Shown here piece by piece: positions 1,393 through 64,000 of a DNA stretch of 64,000 nt (position 1 is its first letter; every line of letters starts with the position of its first letter). The DNA comes from a virus, in the IMG/VR virus record IMGVR_UViG_3300022213_000004. The stretch is one strand, 5' to 3'. The notes beneath the pieces are model-generated. The model saw only the letters and a program-made list of their open reading frames with translations, was not told the origin of the DNA and made no database searches. Both the position numbers and the translations under genes were made by a program.

Positions 1393-1908
1393 ATCAATAT
1401 CTTCGTTACTTCTCCCTTTCCTGCTGAGAGTGCCATCTGCCTCCCAGACAAGCACGTTGTCAAGATGCCCTTAGAGTGCTGTCAGATGCTCTCTATCGTG
1501 GCATCAGACAAGTGGGGACACGGGTACGGCACCCTCCCTAAGGCAGATGGAACCCCCTACAAGACCGAGAAAGGAGCATTCCGCAATCATCCCTGCACCA
1601 AGTGGGCACTGGAGAGTATCCATAATGCCTATTGGTTAATCAAGTGGGGATTGAACTTGTCTGATGAATACTGCCTGCGGTATAATAAAACTCACTCCTG
1701 TTATAAGACCCTTGTGGATGCATACTATTTGTTTCCCAAGGGTAAGATTACAGAAGTGACTCCATTTGCTCGTGCTATGCCTGAGGAATGGAAGTTTGAC
1801 GATACTATTGACACATTTGAAGCATACAAACGATACATTGCATCCAAACCCTGGGTTGCTGATAATTATCTTCGTATGCCGTCAAGACGACCCTCTTGGA
1901 TAATATAA
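1393..1908 (+). CDS. Pyrimidine-dimer DNA glycosylase-like protein; probable ATC start at 1393 (first ATG at 1465)
   Basis: In-frame NIFVTSPFPAESAICLPDKHVVKMPLECCQMLS...NHPCTKW; GAGG at 1381-1384; in-frame stop at 1375-1377. Confidence 0.7.
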   Translation: MNIFVTSPFPAESAICLPDKHVVKMPLECCQMLSIVASDKWGHGYGTLPKADGTPYKTEKGAFRNHPCTKWALESIHNAYWLIKWGLNLSDEYCLRYNKTHSCYKTLVDAYYLFPKGKITEVTPFARAMPEEWKFDDTIDTFEAYKRYIASKPWVADNYLRMPSRRPSWII

Positions 1909-1988
1909 ATAATGATGCCTGGTTTGTTCGCACTTTTCAGGTGGGAGAGTAGAAATGCTCTCCCTTATAAATACTAATGCGAACAAAC
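1904..1988 (+). promoter_or_regulatory. Endonuclease control cassette 1: late promoter, small hairpin RNA, terminator-like hairpin, late promoter, complementary leader
   Basis: TATAAATA at 1904 and 1966; gtttgttcgca (1922-1932) is complementary to tgcgaacaaac (1978-1988); hairpin 1943-1964. Confidence 0.7.
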
Positions 1989-2000
1989 AACAGAGCAGAG

Positions 2001-2579
2001 ATGTATTACACTTACGCCTATTTGCGTGAAGATGGAACTCCTTACTATATTGGTAAAGGTAAAGGAGACCGTGCATATAGAAAAGTTGGAAAACCTTGTG
2101 CTACTCCAAAAGATAAAAATAAAATAATACAACTCAAAACAAATCTTACAGAAGAAGAAGCATTCAATCACGAAAGATATATGATTTTTATCCTTGGTAG
2201 GAAAGATTTGGGAACTGGTATTTTATTAAACAAATCTGATGGTGGCGAAGGTAGAAGTGGATATGTTCCAACAGAAGAACTAAAAAGAAATCAAAGTAAG
2301 AGGATGAGTGGTGAAAATAATCCTATGTACGGTAAAAAAGGTGTTGAATGTCCTTGGTATGGGAGAAAACATAGTGAAGAAACAAAAAATAAAATTAGTA
2401 AATCTTTAACTGGCGAAAACCATAATTTTTATGGAAAAAAACATAAGCAAGAAACAAAAGAAAAAATGAGTGAAATTAAAAAAGGAGAAAAAAATAGTTT
2501 TTATGGAAGAAAACATACAGAAGAAAGTAGGAGAAAAATGAGGGAAGCAGCAAAACGAAGAAAAGAAAAAAGTTCTTGA
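2001..2579 (+). CDS. GIY-YIG-like homing endonuclease with NUMOD3 repeats
   Basis: YYTYAYLREDGTPYYIGKG; repeated GxKH(S/K/T)xE(T/S)(K/R)xK motifs. Confidence 0.85.
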   Translation: MYYTYAYLREDGTPYYIGKGKGDRAYRKVGKPCATPKDKNKIIQLKTNLTEEEAFNHERYMIFILGRKDLGTGILLNKSDGGEGRSGYVPTEELKRNQSKRMSGENNPMYGKKGVECPWYGRKHSEETKNKISKSLTGENHNFYGKKHKQETKEKMSEIKKGEKNSFYGRKHTEESRRKMREAAKRRKEKSS

Positions 2580-2624: not shown

Positions 2625-3242
2625 ATGAAAGACGTTGAAATTTTAAATGAAATTTTCACTGAAATGAATATTCTTCAGGAAGAATATAAACAAATAACAT
2701 ATTATTATGTTTATGCAATTTTTTTTCCAAATTGTAAATTTTACATAGGTTCTCGTCAATGTAACTGCATCCCCATTGAAGATAAAAAATACACTGGTTC
2801 TTATACGGATAAAAGTAATGGTGATGGTATAAAGGTCATTTTAAAAATTTTTTCCAATGAAAATGAAATGACTTTTTATGAGACAAATTTAATTCAAAAA
2901 TTTAAATCTTATTCAAATTGTATTAATGTAAATTCGTCCCCACGAGTTTGTAATAATAATAAGTTGAATAGTAAAGTTTTTAAAACAACGGATTTAATGC
3001 AAATATATGGGTATTCAAGTTCAACAACACTGTCTAATTGGTGTATAATTGCCGAAATTGATAGATTTAGACAAGGAAAATACTTTTATGTGAGTAATGA
3101 AGATAAATTAAAACTTGATGAGGTATCCAATTTTATTAAATCTGGATATACTTATGAGGATTACCTTAAAACTAAAGGTAAATCAAAGGAAGAAATTAAA
3201 AGCATTATTTCAAAGGTGAAAGGACTTAATTATGACAAGTGA
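2625..3242 (+). CDS. GIY-YIG-like endonuclease with C-terminal HTH-like region
   Basis: YYVYAIFFPNCKFYIGSR...YTGS...E...N. Confidence 0.6.
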   Translation: MKDVEILNEIFTEMNILQEEYKQITYYYVYAIFFPNCKFYIGSRQCNCIPIEDKKYTGSYTDKSNGDGIKVILKIFSNENEMTFYETNLIQKFKSYSNCINVNSSPRVCNNNKLNSKVFKTTDLMQIYGYSSSTTLSNWCIIAEIDRFRQGKYFYVSNEDKLKLDEVSNFIKSGYTYEDYLKTKGKSKEEIKSIISKVKGLNYDK

Positions 3243-16925: not shown

Positions 16926-17654
16926 ATGAATTATATTGTATATGCATATTGTAATGAATTTGGAAAATTTTATTATATTGGTAGAGGAAGAGTAGGTAGA
17001 GAAATAGAAAATCATAAAAGGATAAAAGTTCCTCCAAGAGAAAGAATTTCAATACTACATAAAAATCTAACTAAACAAGAAAGTGTTGATTATGAAAAAG
17101 GTTTAATTAAATTTTATGGAAGAAAAATTGATGGTGGAATATTAGAAAATTTAAGTATAGGTGGGCATTGCGGTTCTGAAGGAGTTCCTCCTTGGAATAA
17201 AGGTAAAAGGTGTGGATATATTTCAGAATCAAATAGTAAAAGAATTGGAGAATTACATCCACTTTATGGTAAATCTTTATCAAGAGAGATAAGAGATAAG
17301 ATTAGTCAATCTAATAAAGGAAAAAAACATACCGAAGAATCAAAAAATAAAATTAGTGAGAGTAATCTTGGAGTTAAAAAAACAGAGGAGCATAAAAAAA
17401 ATATAAGTAAAGGTAAAAAAGGTATGAAGCAATCTGAAACTCATAGACAAAATAATTCTAAAAGTAAGTGTAAGTTTTTATATAAAATTGAAACGCCCAC
17501 TGGAGAAATTGTTGAAACTGAAAATATGAGGAAATTTAGTATTGAAAATAATCTACCTCCAGCATCTATGCATAGGTTATCTACTGGTCAGTATATTGAA
17601 TATCGTGGATATAAATTAGTTGATAAAATTGAGTTAATAGTAAAACCAACTTGA
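16926..17654 (+). CDS. GIY-YIG-like homing endonuclease with NUMOD3 repeats
   Basis: YIVYAY...FYYIGRG; GKKHTEESKNKIS-type repeats; TATAAATA in an upstream ctctat/atagag hairpin. Confidence 0.85.
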   Translation: MNYIVYAYCNEFGKFYYIGRGRVGREIENHKRIKVPPRERISILHKNLTKQESVDYEKGLIKFYGRKIDGGILENLSIGGHCGSEGVPPWNKGKRCGYISESNSKRIGELHPLYGKSLSREIRDKISQSNKGKKHTEESKNKISESNLGVKKTEEHKKNISKGKKGMKQSETHRQNNSKSKCKFLYKIETPTGEIVETENMRKFSIENNLPPASMHRLSTGQYIEYRGYKLVDKIELIVKPT

Positions 17655-32823: not shown

Positions 32824-32977
32824 CAGAATCTAAATAAAAACTTATGATGCTAAAATCCTTGTTATGAGCAAGGTTTTTTGTTATGAGACTTTGAGTGACA
32901 TTTAGAGCCGTGGAAAGTGCCCTTTGAAAAAAGGGTGTACCCCCTTTCTATACGGATGTAGAGTTCAATTAATTTTA

Positions 32978-33604
32978 ATGCAAAACTGCTTTACTGTAGC
33001 CCTCTTGCCTCTGTTGGCAACGGTTACAACCACAACGGCAACACTGCCATCATCTGCTATTGCTCCTTCATATTCTATTATTAAGGAGTTTGAAACAGAG
33101 AAGACAGCAATCCGCGAGGTTGCTCCCGAAAAGCCAAAAGAGAAAAGGCTAATTTGTAAAGGGTGTAATGAACATGAAAATACTGCCCTGGCATTTTTCC
33201 AGGATCGCGGTATTAAAGACAGAAACGCCCTTGCTACCATCATGGGTAATATTCGTCAGGAATCAACTTTTGTTCCTAACATTTGTGAAGGTGGTAGCAG
33301 AACCTCATACTATAATTGTGGAAGAGGTTATGGTTTGATACAATTTACTTCTGCTTCTCGTTATTATGGACTGGGTGCTTTTGCTAAAAAAATAGGAGGT
33401 AATCCTTCTACTGCTGATACTCAACTTCGGTATATTACTACTGAACCACAATGGAAGAGTATTGAAAACAGAATGAGAGTTTCTGGAAAATCTATTGATA
33501 GGTATATGAATTATGCCTACGAATGGATTGGATGGGGACACCATGGAGCAAGAACACAATATGCTTATGACTATGCTAAACGATTGGTTCTTGCTGATGT
33601 CTAA
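32978..33604 (+). CDS. Phage tail lysozyme-like protein with signal peptide
   Basis: ALATIMGNIRQES...GYGLIQFT...TQLRY. Confidence 0.8.
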   Translation: MQNCFTVALLPLLATVTTTTATLPSSAIAPSYSIIKEFETEKTAIREVAPEKPKEKRLICKGCNEHENTALAFFQDRGIKDRNALATIMGNIRQESTFVPNICEGGSRTSYYNCGRGYGLIQFTSASRYYGLGAFAKKIGGNPSTADTQLRYITTEPQWKSIENRMRVSGKSIDRYMNYAYEWIGWGHHGARTQYAYDYAKRLVLADV

Positions 33605-33692
33605 ATAACTTTACCTGACTTGCTGACACTTTTCAGGTGAGATTGGAGTGCTTCGGCACTCCTTTCTTGTATAAATAGTAATGTCAGCAAGT
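33602..33692 (+). promoter_or_regulatory. Endonuclease control cassette 2
   Basis: TAAATA at 33602; acttgctgaca (33618-33628) is complementary to tgtcagcaagt (33682-33692); UUCG hairpin 33645-33662; TATAAATA at 33670. Confidence 0.7.
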
Positions 33693-33701
33693 TAGAGTAG
33701 T

Positions 33702-34352
33702 ATGAAACACTTTTATGTGTATTATTCCTATGAGGAATATGGAAGGGGATATATTGGAAAAAGAGAATGTAAATGTCTTCCAGAAGAAGATGTAAGTTAT
33801 TTTGGAAGTTTCAAAGATAAAACTTTCAATCCAACTCAAAAAATAATATTAGAAACTTTTGGGAGTGTTGAAGAAGCACTTGAAGCAGAATGTGCTCTCC
33901 ACGATTTTTATGAAGTAGATAAAAATCCACACTTTGCTAATAGGGCAAAACAAACTTCTACTGGATTTTATTGTAATAAAGGTGCTGGTGAAGAAGCAAA
34001 CAAGAAAAGAAGTGAGTTGATGAAAACAGAATACAATCCTATGAGTAATCCAAAACTCAAAGAGAAAGCAAGAAAAAACTTGATTAGAACTTTGAGTAAT
34101 CCAGAAATGAGAAAACTAAAAAGTAGAGTTGGAAAGAAAGCACACAATCGTCCAGAAGTAGTTGAGAACCATAGACAGGCAGCACTCAAATCTCATCAAA
34201 ATCCAGAAACAAAAAGAAAACATATTGAGGCAAAACTTGGTGAGAAAAATCCTTGTTATGGTAAAAAGTGGATTACAAATGGAAATGAAAACAAATACAT
34301 AAACTCTATTGATGAAGTTCCAAGTGGTTTTTGGTATGGTAGAGTTGTTTGA
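33702..34352 (+). CDS. GIY-YIG (Seg-like) homing endonuclease
   Basis: FYVYYSYEEYGRGYIGKR...YFGS...E...HFAN; KWITNG...GRV tail. Confidence 0.85.
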   Translation: MKHFYVYYSYEEYGRGYIGKRECKCLPEEDVSYFGSFKDKTFNPTQKIILETFGSVEEALEAECALHDFYEVDKNPHFANRAKQTSTGFYCNKGAGEEANKKRSELMKTEYNPMSNPKLKEKARKNLIRTLSNPEMRKLKSRVGKKAHNRPEVVENHRQAALKSHQNPETKRKHIEAKLGEKNPCYGKKWITNGNENKYINSIDEVPSGFWYGRVV

Positions 34353-36207: not shown

Positions 36208-36247
36208 CTTGGTAGTCGTTAGGCACATAGTCTAAAAAGACGCCAAA

Positions 36248-36317
36248 GGAAGTTAAGTCAAAGAATCGAGACAAGCAGACAATGCCCTTTGAACTGGTGT
36301 AAGTCCAGTAACTTCCT
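36248..36317 (+). ncRNA. tRNA-like RNA with degenerate anticodon arm
   Basis: ggaagtt/aacttcc acceptor-like stem; actgg-tgtaagt-ccagt T-arm; gtc/gac D-like arm; gca-gacaa-tgc mini arm. Confidence 0.5.
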
Positions 36318-36321
36318 TTAT

Positions 36322-39103: not shown

Positions 39104-39110
39104 TTTTTGT

Positions 39111-39201
39111 GGGGGCATAGTTCAACGGTAGAACAGCGGTCTTATACTCCGTATTAGCGCCAGATTAGCGCGAGGTCTTGGTTCGAATCCAAGTGTCCCT
39201 A
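39111..39201 (+). tRNA. tRNA with TAT anticodon (Ile-UAU) and long variable arm
   Basis: Acceptor gggggca/tgtccct; loop ct-tat-ac; variable arm gcgc-cagatta-gcgc; canonical T-arm. Confidence 0.75.
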
Positions 39202-39221
39202 TTCCACTTAATGTGGATTTT

Positions 39222-39292
39222 GGGCGGGTACTTTAATGGTAAAAGAGGCTCCTTATAAGGGCTCATTCGGGGTTCAATTCCCCGTCCGCCTA
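39222..39292 (+). tRNA. tRNA-Ile(TAT)
   Basis: Acceptor gggcggg/tccgcct; ggctc-ct-tat-aa-gggct; A73. Confidence 0.85.
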
Positions 39293-39339
39293 TTTTTAAT
39301 AAAACTCATATAAATAAATAGAACTGTTCTATTATAAGT

Positions 39340-40540: not shown

Positions 40541-40599
40541 AACTTATACTGGTGGAGTCAAAATGACCCTATTATGAGTTTATTGCCTCTCTCAAGGGC

Positions 40600-40670
40600 A
40601 ATTGGTGCGGATGGGACTCTCTCCCGCCTGGTTTCCAATTTCCAGTCAAAGAATTGGTGGCGAGCCTGAA
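40600..40670 (+). ncRNA. wcaG-like cyanophage RNA motif
   Basis: gcggatggga/tcccgc hairpin; ctgg/ccag stem whose loop ccaatt pairs with downstream aattgg; upstream of a nucleotide-sugar dehydratase; family name from recall. Confidence 0.65.
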
Positions 40671-40675
40671 TTTTC

Positions 40676-55638: not shown

Positions 55639-56310
55639 ATGACCCTAGATCTTCATAACTTTTTTAAGTTTTATGATGATGGTAATGAGAATCATGTTGC
55701 AGCGGTTCAATGGTTAGAGGATAATCTTCCTTCTCAGTTTTTAGATGATGCAGAAACAGATTGGATTGGTATTTACAGAACTAAGCCCCCTACACCCGCA
55801 GTTCTTTCAGTTCCTTACTTTAATCAAGTAGACAACTACAGAGATGCACATAGAACTTGTAACAGTTCATCGTGTGCTATGTGCCTCGCTTTCCTCAAGC
55901 CAGGAAGCATTAAAGGCGATGATGAGTATGTCAAGAAAGTATTTGCGATTGGCGATACTACTGACCATGCGGTACAAACGAAAGTTCTGGCAGGTTATGG
56001 AGTTAAGTCACACTTTAGTTACAATCTTTCTTTTGCTGATATTGATAAGAGTCTTGATGCTGGAAAGCCTGTTGTTATTGGTATCCTGCACAGGGGTCCT
56101 CTATCTGCACCTACTGGCGGGCACATGGTTGTAGTCATTGGTAAGACACCAGACGGTAAAGGTTATTATGTGAATGACCCATATGGTTCGTGTAATGATA
56201 ACTACACTGGTCCAGTAACAAATGGTAAGAAGACTATTTACGCCAAAGCAATGCTCAAGCACCGCTGGGCACCTAATGGAGGGGACGGATGGGGACGCAT
56301 TTTTGATTAA
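55639..56310 (+). CDS. C39-like cysteine peptidase
   Basis: VPYFNQ...TCNSSSCAM...GGHMVVVIG...VNDPYG. Confidence 0.85.
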   Translation: MTLDLHNFFKFYDDGNENHVAAVQWLEDNLPSQFLDDAETDWIGIYRTKPPTPAVLSVPYFNQVDNYRDAHRTCNSSSCAMCLAFLKPGSIKGDDEYVKKVFAIGDTTDHAVQTKVLAGYGVKSHFSYNLSFADIDKSLDAGKPVVIGILHRGPLSAPTGGHMVVVIGKTPDGKGYYVNDPYGSCNDNYTGPVTNGKKTIYAKAMLKHRWAPNGGDGWGRIFD

Positions 56311-56401
56311 TAAATAATAATGCTCTAATGAGTTCGCATCCATAAGAGTGGAAAAGGTGTCTTCGGGCACCTTTTCTTGTATAAATAGTATTGCGAACTC
56401 A
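56311..56401 (+). promoter_or_regulatory. Endonuclease control cassette 3
   Basis: TAAATA at 56311; tgagttcgca (56329-56338) is complementary to tgcgaactca (56392-56401); cUUCGg hairpin; TATAAATA at 56380. Confidence 0.7.
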
Positions 56402-56415
56402 ATTTGGAAGCAGTT

Positions 56416-57048
56416 ATGGTAAATCCTAACAGATTTTATACCTATGCATATTTGCGTAAGGATAGAACTCCTTATTACATAGGTAAAGGAACGAGATACA
56501 GATTATTTGAAGGTAATGGAAAACCTTGTCCTGTTCCATCAAAAGATAGAATTTTAATACTTAAAAATAATCTAACAGAAGAAGAAGCATTTAAACACGA
56601 AACTTATATGATAAATGTGTTTGGTAGGAAGATTGATGGTGGAATTCTTTTGAATAAAACTTTTGGTGGAGAGGGTGCTTCTGGTAGAATTGTAAACGAA
56701 GAGGTTAGAGAAAAAATAAGATTATCTTTATTAGGCAGAAAGCAAAGTTTAAATACTAGAAGGAAAAAAAGTATTTCTTTACTGTGTAAAAATAGAAATC
56801 CACTTACAGAAGAACAGAAACTTAAGATAAGTAATACTCTAAAAGGTAGAAAATTATCAAAAGAGGTGGTAGATAAAAGAACTCAATCTGTATGTAAAAA
56901 TACTTATATTGTAATATCACCTGATGGAATTGAATATAATATTAATAATTTGAAAGAATTTCAAAGACAAAATAATTTAAAACATCTTTATGATGTGGTT
57001 TCAGGTAAAAGAAAACAAGATAAAGGTTGGATTGCTTTCAAATTATAA
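56416..57048 (+). CDS. GIY-YIG-like homing endonuclease with NUMOD3 repeats
   Basis: FYTYAYLRKDRTPYYIGKG...LTEEEAFKHE...GGEG; paralog of 2001-2579. Confidence 0.85.
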   Translation: MVNPNRFYTYAYLRKDRTPYYIGKGTRYRLFEGNGKPCPVPSKDRILILKNNLTEEEAFKHETYMINVFGRKIDGGILLNKTFGGEGASGRIVNEEVREKIRLSLLGRKQSLNTRRKKSISLLCKNRNPLTEEQKLKISNTLKGRKLSKEVVDKRTQSVCKNTYIVISPDGIEYNINNLKEFQRQNNLKHLYDVVSGKRKQDKGWIAFKL

Positions 57049-57577: not shown

Positions 57578-57724
57578 ATGGAGAACGAAAACTCTTCAAA
57601 CAATTTCAAAAGAAAGATGCTTAAAGTTATTAAAGAACTTACAAATAACGGACGGCATGTAGAAGCAAACGAACTTTATCAACGGTATTTCGGAGACAAC
57701 AATGGCAAGAATCGATCTACATAA
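57578..57724 (+). CDS. Small hypothetical protein (48 aa)
   Basis: MENENSSNNFKRKMLKVIKELTNNGRHVEANELYQRYFG. Confidence 0.5.
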   Translation: MENENSSNNFKRKMLKVIKELTNNGRHVEANELYQRYFGDNNGKNRST

Positions 57725-58379
57725 CTTCTTCAAGTTTTATGACGAGAAGAACCCCAACCACGTCAAAGCAGTTCAGTGGTTGGAAGATAACCTCCCAGTC
57801 AAGTATCTAGAAGATAATATTGATTGGGCAGAGATTTATAGAGGAAAAAAGACTAGTGCTGCACCAGCATCTGCTCCCGCTGCTGCAGCTCCTGCTCCCG
57901 TAGTTGGTGGTGATGATGTTCCACAAATGGGCATCAAACTCATTAAAGAGTTTGAAGGATGCAGATTAAATGCATACCCAGATCCACTTACCGGTAATCT
58001 TCCAATCACGATTGGTTGGGGATGCACCCGCAAGAAAGATGGTTCTGCATTTAAGATGGGAGATTCAATCACTCAAGCAGAAGCAGATGAACTTTTGATT
58101 GATGAGTGTAAGCACAACTTCCTTCCATCACTTAGAAAAATCCCACATTGGAGTGAAATGTCAGATGGACAAAGAGGCGCTCTGCTCAGCTTTGCTTATA
58201 ATCTTGGTGCCGGTTTTTACGGTGGCAATGACTTTAATACTATTACTAAACGCTTGAAGAATAAAGAGTGGGACTTAGTTCCCGATGCGCTTTATCTATA
58301 TCGCAATCCTGGTTCAAATGTAGAAGCAGGTCTTGCTCGTAGAAGAAAAGCAGAAGGTGAATCTTGGAAAAAAGGTTAA
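57702..58379 (+). CDS. GH24 lysozyme (endolysin)
   Basis: LIKEFEGCRLNAYPDP...TIGWG...ALLSFAYNLG...GLARRRKAE. Confidence 0.9.
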   Translation: MARIDLHNFFKFYDEKNPNHVKAVQWLEDNLPVKYLEDNIDWAEIYRGKKTSAAPASAPAAAAPAPVVGGDDVPQMGIKLIKEFEGCRLNAYPDPLTGNLPITIGWGCTRKKDGSAFKMGDSITQAEADELLIDECKHNFLPSLRKIPHWSEMSDGQRGALLSFAYNLGAGFYGGNDFNTITKRLKNKEWDLVPDALYLYRNPGSNVEAGLARRRKAEGESWKKG

Positions 58380-63246: not shown

Positions 63247-63294
63247 AAATAGGTAAACAAATGTTACGGAACTTAAACATTCCTTTAACATTGT

Positions 63295-63410
63295 CTTTCC
63301 TGCCGTTTGACCGAGACTAGGCAGGGTTATCAATCCGTCTCTCATATCCAGTCTTAGGGTGACTGGAGCATAGTATCTCCACCATTTCCCTGATGGTCTT
63401 ACTAACTGCT
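63295..63410 (+). ncRNA. Structured psbA 5' leader (PhotoRC-II-like)
   Basis: cctgcc/ggcagg stem whose loop gagac can pair with gtctc; tccagtc/gactgga and accat/atggt hairpins. Confidence 0.6.
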
Positions 63411-63417
63411 TAAAAAA

Positions 63418-64000
63418 ATGACTGCTACAATTTCACAACAAAAACAACTGAATAATTGGAAACAATTCTGCAACTGGGTTACATCAACCGATAATCGTCT
63501 TTATGTCGGTTGGTTTGGAGTTCTTATGATTCCTTGCCTGCTTGCTGCTACGACTTGTTTCATCATCGCCTTTATTGGCGCACCTCCCGTAGACATTAAC
63601 TAATCGGTGTCCCTTACTCGTAAGAGTATTGACGAAACTGGGTGAATTGCTGGAAACCGAAAGGCAATCAGCATCCAAGCCTCAAGTACACTTGAGGAAG
63701 GTTCAGAGACTACCTGAGGGGTTTAGTCCCCTTAATAACAGGTTTAAGTGCCCAGCCCCTTCAATAAAAATGAAGGGTGAAGATATAGTCCAAACTTCAC
63801 AGAGTAATCTGCAATAACCTAAGTCTTATGATATGGTTGTTTATATGAAGTTGCGACGGGATTCGTGAACCAGTTGCTGGTTCTCTAATGTATGGAAATA
63901 ACATCATCTCTGGTGCTGTTATTCCTAGTTCAAATGCTATCGGACTGCATTTCTACCCAATTTGGGAAGCCGCAAGTCTGGATGAGTGGCTTTATAAATA
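63418..64000 (+). CDS. psbA: Photosystem II D1, partial; exon 1 63418-63596, exon 2 from 63854
   Basis: [20 protein letters not shown]...[28 protein letters not shown]...[16 protein letters not shown]. Confidence 0.96.
63597..63853 (+). mobile_element. ORF-less group I intron in psbA (257 nt)
   Basis: Exon gacat pairs with IGS gtgtc through a U.G pair; P aattgctggaa, Q aatcagca, R cagagactac, S aagatatagtcc; terminal G; splicing restores GAC-ATC-GAC. Confidence 0.92.

Follow-up and report, generated by a model that had tools for sequence, protein, structure and literature searches.

A two-promoter cassette with a putative antisense RNA upstream of phage nuclease genes

The cassette described here, identified upstream of three endonuclease genes of a T4-like cyanophage, is a real, widespread and apparently undescribed RNA module. 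It consists, in order, of a late promoter (P1), a stem-loop, a terminator-like hairpin, a second late promoter (P2), a leader of 17–25 nt and a nuclease gene, and its stem-loop begins exactly at the predicted +1 of P1. Comparison of approximately 200 distinct cassettes, recovered from viral contigs and cultured phages, shows that pairing between the predicted small RNA and the leader is under selection. We favour, at a probability of about 0.65, a reading in which the cassette specifies a tandem, separately transcribed antisense RNA that blocks translation of the nuclease and, in cis, masks read-through RNA as well. Support for the pairing is good; that the short transcript exists is inferred, as is its action in trans, which we regard as probable but unproven.

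The cassette in a freshwater cyanophage

The window, the whole 64,000-nucleotide stretch analysed here (IMG/VR record IMGVR_UViG_3300022213_000004), belongs to a freshwater T4-like cyanophage with 35% G+C, and contains the gp45 sliding clamp, denV, tRNAs and the wcaG and PhotoRC-II RNAs. Among cultured phages it is closest to Synechococcus myophages such as DSL-LC02/03 and S-SRM01, and the RNA runs that contain window sequence are of riverine or freshwater origin. The three copies and the genes around them are laid out as follows.

1465..1908, +, denV-like pyrimidine dimer glycosylase (Pfam PF03013), host gene upstream of copy 1; its stop codon overlaps P1
1904..1911, +, late promoter P1 of copy 1 (TATAAATA), from sequence
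1917..1966, 3′ end approximate, +, predicted small RNA of copy 1 (folding z −3.8; covariation)
1917–1922/1937–1942, +, stem of small RNA 1, with guide 1917–1931 and terminator-like hairpin 1943–1964 (weak U-tail)
1966..1973, +, late promoter P2 of copy 1, from sequence
1979..2000, +, mRNA leader of copy 1 from the predicted +1; small-RNA target 1979–1996
2001..2579, +, endonuclease 1, free-standing GIY-YIG/NUMOD3 type, 192 aa (NUMOD3, TIGR01453)
32924..33604, +, phage lysozyme (Pfam PF18013), host gene upstream of copy 2; its stop codon overlaps P1
33601..33607, +, P1 of copy 2 (CTAAATA variant), from sequence
33613..33669, +, predicted small RNA of copy 2 (folding z −4.9)
33613–33618/33633–33638, +, stem of small RNA 2, with guide 33613–33627 and UUCG hairpin 33639–33668 (U-tract present)
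33670..33677, +, late promoter P2 of copy 2, from sequence
33683..33701, +, mRNA leader of copy 2 from the predicted +1; target 33683–33698
33702..34352, +, endonuclease 2, of a GIY-YIG-like subfamily differing from that of endonuclease 1, 216 aa (PHROG 314 homing endonuclease; weak NUMOD3)
55639..56310, +, C39-like peptidase/endolysin (Pfam PF13529), host gene upstream of copy 3
56309..56316, +, P1 of copy 3 (AATAAATA), from sequence
56322..56379, +, predicted small RNA of copy 3 (folding z −5.0)
56322–56326/56345–56349, +, stem of small RNA 3, with guide 56322–56337 and UUCG hairpin 56350–56377 (U-tract present)
56380..56387, +, late promoter P2 of copy 3, from sequence
56393..56415, +, mRNA leader of copy 3 from the predicted +1; target 56393–56411
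56416..57048, +, endonuclease 3, 210 aa, of the GIY-YIG subfamily of endonuclease 1 (47% identical to it)

The original prediction, made from the letters of the window alone, had described this shared order before three endonucleases, and every element lies where it was placed. A pattern that ignores complementarity finds exactly three matches in the 64 kb, against 0.04 expected from shuffles, and a covariance model search of the window returned no copy beyond these. Late promoters of T4 span −13 to −6 (PMC1524935), and the late promoter sequence in cyanophages is NATAAATA (PMC2984593). With the T4 spacing applied, the P1 RNAs would start at the first base of the stem (1917, 33613 and 56322) and the P2 mRNAs at 1979, 33683 and 56393; P2 lies between the arm and the leader in all copies. 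Each window small RNA is predicted to fold into two hairpins. The terminator U-tract is good in copies 2 and 3 and poor in copy 1, whose hairpin was not called a terminator by a consensus promoter/terminator scanner. Across homologues the tail is U-rich in most copies (median 6 of 8), and the weakest tails are those of copy 1 and its denV-type relatives, located inside the replication operon.

Endonuclease 1 starts at 2001 and not at 1977, the position given by the ORF finder. Its GIY-YIG-type Y/G/R/E/N residues are invariant, and the predicted fold, with middling Z of 5.5–7.8, has only GIY-YIG domains or nucleases in its top rows. By catalytic residues, predicted fold and NUMOD3 DNA-binding tail, it meets the description of a putative GIY-YIG homing endonuclease; at denV, the pattern of presence and absence is consistent with homing but does not show activity. 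The C-terminal tail of endonuclease 3 differs from that of endonuclease 1.

Several other features of the window adjoin or resemble these loci. Endonuclease 3 is flanked by tandem endolysin genes, the peptidase at 55639 and a stretch at 57711–57848 whose N-terminal 47 aa are 68% identical to the start of that peptidase. At copy 2, RNA-run contigs and the window disagree over the 5′ portion of the lysozyme gene (32924–33604), but near-identity sets in at about 33300 and continues through the nuclease, which suggests that the mobile unit takes in the 3′ portion of that gene; no orphan half of a lysozyme gene turned up in the window. Two more nuclease paralogues, at 2625–3242 and 16926–17654, have no cassette, and the second of them has a terminator-like hairpin and a single late promoter, with no guide. 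The RNAs known to Rfam lie at 40574–40671, 63286–63381 and 63587–63814 (wcaG, PhotoRC-II, group I intron). Two tandem tRNAs with a UAU anticodon, Ile by ARAGORN, occupy 39110–39293, and a structured RNA candidate with z of −3.3 and no Rfam match lies between tRNA-Gly and tRNA-Asn at 36215–36320.

Guide–leader pairing across homologues

The predicted duplex between small RNA and leader is 15–16 bp long, runs from mRNA +1 into the purine-rich ribosome-binding site (RBS), and uses the 5′ arm of the short stem. A perfect complement of 10–11 nt, directed at the very 5′ end of the mRNA, had been reported for each copy. Complement and location both hold, but the pairing is longer, including the 5′ stem arm and reaching the RBS, and the mRNA starts at a G one base inside the reported target; the A:T pair flanking that target falls outside the predicted transcript and shows no covariation. 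Since the stem and the guide–leader duplex share the 5′ arm, they are alternatives, and the pseudoknot switch that had been offered as one interpretation is rejected.

Searches blind to pairing recover the pairing. Among the matches listed for the pairing-blind pattern in viral contigs, 104 of 112 unique hits have a cognate duplex of −15 kcal/mol or stronger, a level reached by 5% of non-cognate pairs. In the bacterial-genome control the same pattern gives 1/118, and that one is a true cassette on a 1.8-kb contig. With selection on the scaffold only, at least seven of nine Watson–Crick pairs at +1 to +9 are present in 204 of 209 candidates, against 11.5% with shuffled partners. In an alignment built on a model that does not encode the guide–leader helix, guide–leader pairs are nevertheless among the strongest covarying columns, so that the loop/leader covariation anticipated among homologues is found. 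The helix between the 5′ arm and the RBS is 90% paired, with double changes at all six pairs; the competing stem (80% paired) and the terminator hairpin (92%) covary as well.

The pairing starts at P2 +1, with 98% against 67% expected there, 81% against 74% at −1 and 22% against 33% at −2; upstream of P2 +1 (alignment pairs 36–150 and 37–148) there is none beyond composition. Exposure in the free RNA is greatest (0.84–0.99) at the bases opposite +1 to +4, and in the duplex these are among the most strictly paired; nearer the RBS, bulges are tolerated. The median net binding energy comes to −14.5 kcal/mol, with the duplex ending 2–9 nt before the AUG. Mismatches at +1 to +9 are G–U in 37 cases versus A–C in 7 (symmetric scoring; nominal p 5e-6, sequences related), which points to pairing of plus-strand RNA and against a DNA repeat; the GAAA and UUCG loops also fit the plus strand. 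The homologues are related, and counts of this kind overstate independence.

P1 is present in 172 cassettes that were detected without using it. Its spacing to the stem is exactly 5 nt in 167 of these, matching the −13 to −6 rule of T4, and a purine stands at its +1 in 167/172, against a background of 62%. Among denV alleles, 78 of 80 have neither cassette nor P1, and P1 is therefore part of the mobile unit. The idea that P1 is a captured host promoter or a target-site duplication was rejected on two grounds: these empty alleles lack P1, and TAAATA stands near the gene end in only 27 of 149 nuclease genes. At five loci (L017, L020, L154, L190 and L200) an extra TATAAT-like box lies just upstream of P2, which might permit early transcription by host sigma-70.

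Loci found via the three window nucleases mostly have the cassette. With the covariance model that lacks the guide–leader helix, S-SRM01 yields six copies, B3 three and S-B68 one; seven large metagenomic contigs have between one and five apiece. The downstream genes form 17 clusters, mostly nucleases of 130–400 aa, comprising several GIY-YIG-like subfamilies, HNH, EndoVII-like proteins, a weak PD-(D/E)XK-like match and one TnpB-like protein, and 89 different gene clusters precede the cassettes. The TnpB-like case (L365:3847–5154) is a cassette heading a 398-aa TnpB/IS605 OrfB-like gene (Pfam PF07282, PF01385, PF12323).

The leaders have at least 83 distinct 9-mers, hereafter barcodes, 17 of which are common to more than one protein cluster. 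All six copies in S-SRM01 carry different barcodes, and for the S-SRM01 and window copies the cognate duplex is the strongest in each row of the comparison. In the window, the targets of copies 1 and 3 begin with the same six bases, and cross-binding of RNA 3 to leader 1 is predicted at −17.6 kcal/mol, versus −21.5 for the cognate pair. Co-resident copies cross-pair in 1 of 46 cases, versus 4.8% for random pairs, a difference that does not establish extra orthogonality, and one genome has two copies of the same barcode. Of 13 protein pairs with at least 90% identity, 6 have leaders that differ at three or more of the nine positions, as do a third of the pairs with 80–90% identity. The variable loop and leader would act as a barcode, with control largely specific to each nuclease gene.

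A second scaffold, unrelated to the first, is a single hairpin with a conserved internal loop and a variable loop of about 20 nt. It precedes a late promoter and nucleases of the same kinds, and occurs in 94 stretches as well as in the cultured phage Sf-CH5:

Loci L045, L046, L059, L061, L226 and L371–L463, second scaffold

All 50 unique copies pair with their leader; the non-cognate control, at 32%, is a weaker one. An upstream late promoter is present in 13 of the 50, and a sigma-70-like −10 box in 10. The scaffold is absent from the window, where one partial match lies in another RNA. Three further loci (L060, L064 and L073) have a third conserved leader type, one promoter and a hairpin, before related nucleases. 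A search of Rfam, at both gathering and E-value levels, gave no match for the cassette or for the second scaffold, in keeping with the novelty originally suggested. The two-promoter architecture is not described in the literature that we found, in which most subscription journals were not covered, and the S-SRM01 paper does not mention the cassette.

A separate antisense RNA and its alternatives

Under the reading we favour, the cassette would give selfish phage nucleases a portable control unit with two promoters. The late RNA polymerase (gp55) is inferred to start at P1, giving a 50–60-nt RNA that would fold and end at the hairpin, and P2 is inferred to yield the nuclease mRNA with an open leader of 17–25 nt. 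The exposed 4–5-nt loop would capture +1 to +4 of this mRNA, the stem would unzip, and the resulting 15–16-bp duplex would cover the purine-rich RBS and, by inference, block translation. Transcripts reading through the hairpin would form the same helix in cis and be silenced too. As P1 and P2 are both late promoters, their class cannot account for timing. Because P1 looks weaker than P2 and its product is structured, the nuclease would probably be made in a brief burst soon after the late phase begins and then be shut off with the build-up of genome copies and small RNA. The late-promoter consensus is perfect in 164 of 172 cassettes for P2 and in 28 for P1, which, by analogy with multicopy inhibition in IS10 (PMC5006887), suggests delayed shut-off by a stable RNA.

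This separate RNA with a cis back-up is preferred because P1 is held at fixed spacing, pairing begins at +1, the exposed loop faces +1 to +4 and the tails are U-rich. We also count in its support the second scaffold, with the same logic, and the orphan loci described below, in which the nuclease is deleted and the RNA unit intact. The original proposal that each nuclease travels with its own antisense RNA of about 55 nt gains support, across some 200 homologues, from covariation, G–U bias, promoter spacing, loop accessibility and the empty alleles. For copy 2, the RNA-run data are assembled contigs only; some bridge lysozyme, cassette and nuclease, and they give no RNA ends or strand.

A mask acting only in cis is the main rival, possible if unlikely in our estimate. 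The upstream arm would fold on the leader only in read-through RNA, and P2 transcripts would be translated; such a mask would follow the T-even design of I-TevI, segB and mobE, except that its loop would contain a terminator, and any short RNA would be a by-product. T-even homing endonuclease genes (I-TevI, I-TevII, I-TevIII, segB and Aeh1 mobE) indeed carry RBS-sequestering hairpins with a nested late promoter, an established design (PMC2988022), and a cis mask has also been proposed for metagenomic phage nucleases (PMC2677866). Read-through RNA from the cassette folds into the same helix at −35 to −40 kcal/mol, near-equal in energy, so covariation alone cannot separate cis from trans, and the copy in the replication operon has a leaky-looking terminator.

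The likeness to the T-even hairpins extends to the kind of target gene, the masking of the RBS by an upstream arm, the late promoter between the arms and the negative sign of the control. Two features of the T-even mask are present, as read-through RNA is predicted to sequester the RBS and the P2 mRNA lacks the masking arm. A third is not, namely an arm confined to longer upstream transcripts without a transcription unit of its own: the cassette arm has its own promoter, a competing stem-loop and a terminator, as judged by sequence and without RNA data. Unlike the T-even hairpins, the cassette pairs from the first base of the mRNA, is common to unrelated nuclease folds and comes in its many barcodes (at least 83). 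A cis-only mask also leaves unexplained a P1 at fixed spacing on a mobile element, a covarying stem that forms first and hides the arm, and pairing that is most strict at +1 to +4, opposite an exposed loop and distant from the RBS.

It is improbable that the cassette acts at another level, through P1 polymerase terminating over P2 and occluding it, or through a duplex that alters elongation or mRNA decay. The U-tract does end at the P2 box and the duplex does start at the first transcribed base, but compensatory changes keep the helix conserved across the RBS region, which points to translation, and promoter occlusion requires no complementarity. We give very little credence to autorepression by a nuclease bound to an inverted-repeat operator or cruciform in the DNA, the other alternative raised at the outset; I-TevI autorepresses at its own late promoter (PMC2988022), but the idea fails on the G–U bias and on the occurrence of one barcode before unrelated proteins, with close protein relatives carrying different ones. 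A role for the RNA as a nuclease-bound guide or cofactor is scarcely tenable: a fixed scaffold with a variable segment adjoins a nuclease, and one partner is TnpB-like, but the variable segment matches the element's own leader and one scaffold precedes GIY-YIG, HNH, EndoVII-like and TnpB-like folds, which argues against a protein-specific guide.

Related systems and orphan units

The cassette fails a defining feature of each of the closest known systems, which are, in setting, the T-even cis hairpins and the hairpins of Dassa et al. 2009 (as far as that partly available source allows) and, in mechanism, IS10 RNA-OUT and C4. Known control of phage homing endonucleases comprises cis hairpins, terminators and protein autorepression. 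Dassa et al. describe 5′ UTR hairpins of free-standing nucleases in fractured-gene loci, in the portion of the paper we could consult (PMC2677866). As in the cassette, the loci are aquatic and T4-like, TATAAATA occurs with two complementary motifs, and several nuclease types are involved. That portion presents each as a single hairpin acting in cis and describes neither a second promoter nor a small RNA nor a variable barcode; on this partial view, some overlap between the cassette and that hairpin family cannot be excluded.

The loop of IS10 RNA-OUT captures the 5′ end of its mRNA. RNA-OUT is an antisense RNA of about 70 nt directed against the translation-initiation region of the mRNA for the element's own enzyme, with copy-number-dependent repression (PMC5006887). 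By comparative prediction, the cassette RNA likewise pairs with the translation-initiation region of its own element's enzyme mRNA. However, RNA-OUT comes from the opposite strand of the same DNA, whereas the cassette RNA and its target are separate sequences on the same strand, which must co-evolve and contain bulges and G–U pairs. C4 RNA lies on the same strand as its target and upstream of it. In phages P1 and P7 its loops pair with the target mRNA and occlude the RBS (PMC5320573; Rfam C4 family), and in the cassette, too, loop variation sets target specificity, as judged from the predicted duplexes. Unlike C4, the cassette has no Rfam match, has one targeting loop and a terminator hairpin in place of three stem-loops, two of them targeting, is predicted to give a primary transcript and not an RNase P product, and resides in lytic phages with a selfish nuclease as target.

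Type I toxin–antitoxin systems feature a small membrane toxin. The resemblance to a type I antitoxin noted in the original prediction survives as an analogy only, since the partners here are mostly nucleases of 130–400 aa and not small membrane toxins. CfrI, an antisense RNA of cyanophage S-PM2, is linked to a homing endonuclease (PMC2984593); unlike the cassette RNA, it is about 225 nt long, lies on the opposite strand, overlaps psbA and the nuclease gene, and is not portable. SviR differs in being a satellite RNA with other targets.

Some RNA units have outlived their nuclease. At two loci (L436 and L362) a deletion took P2, the leader and the nuclease except its last codons, with the RNA unit intact; four others (L356, L426, L458 and L314) keep the RNA unit with no nuclease detected within the available flanking DNA (up to 1 kb), and the orphan guides match leaders of intact elements elsewhere at −22 to −26 kcal/mol. 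Because orphan units persist after nuclease loss and barcodes turn over, the barcoded RNAs could conceivably form an RNA-based immunity and incompatibility system among lytic phages, a reading we consider doubtful. In mixed infection the RNA would silence nuclease genes of the same barcode, also on a co-infecting genome, nucleases would escape by barcode change, and in phages that delete the nuclease the retained RNA gene would guard against its return (about six loci). At present, neutral drift, recent loss or retention of a useful terminator explains the orphan and turnover data equally well.

If the separate-RNA reading is true, the control of phage nucleases would gain a new layer, a same-strand antisense RNA with its own transcription that passes between unrelated nuclease folds and has a counterpart in the second scaffold; the cassette RNAs would constitute a new family of small RNAs in lytic phages. 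The finding supplies dozens of natural, compact, near-orthogonal pairs of RNA repressor and leader, and it bears on how one phage tolerates many nucleases.
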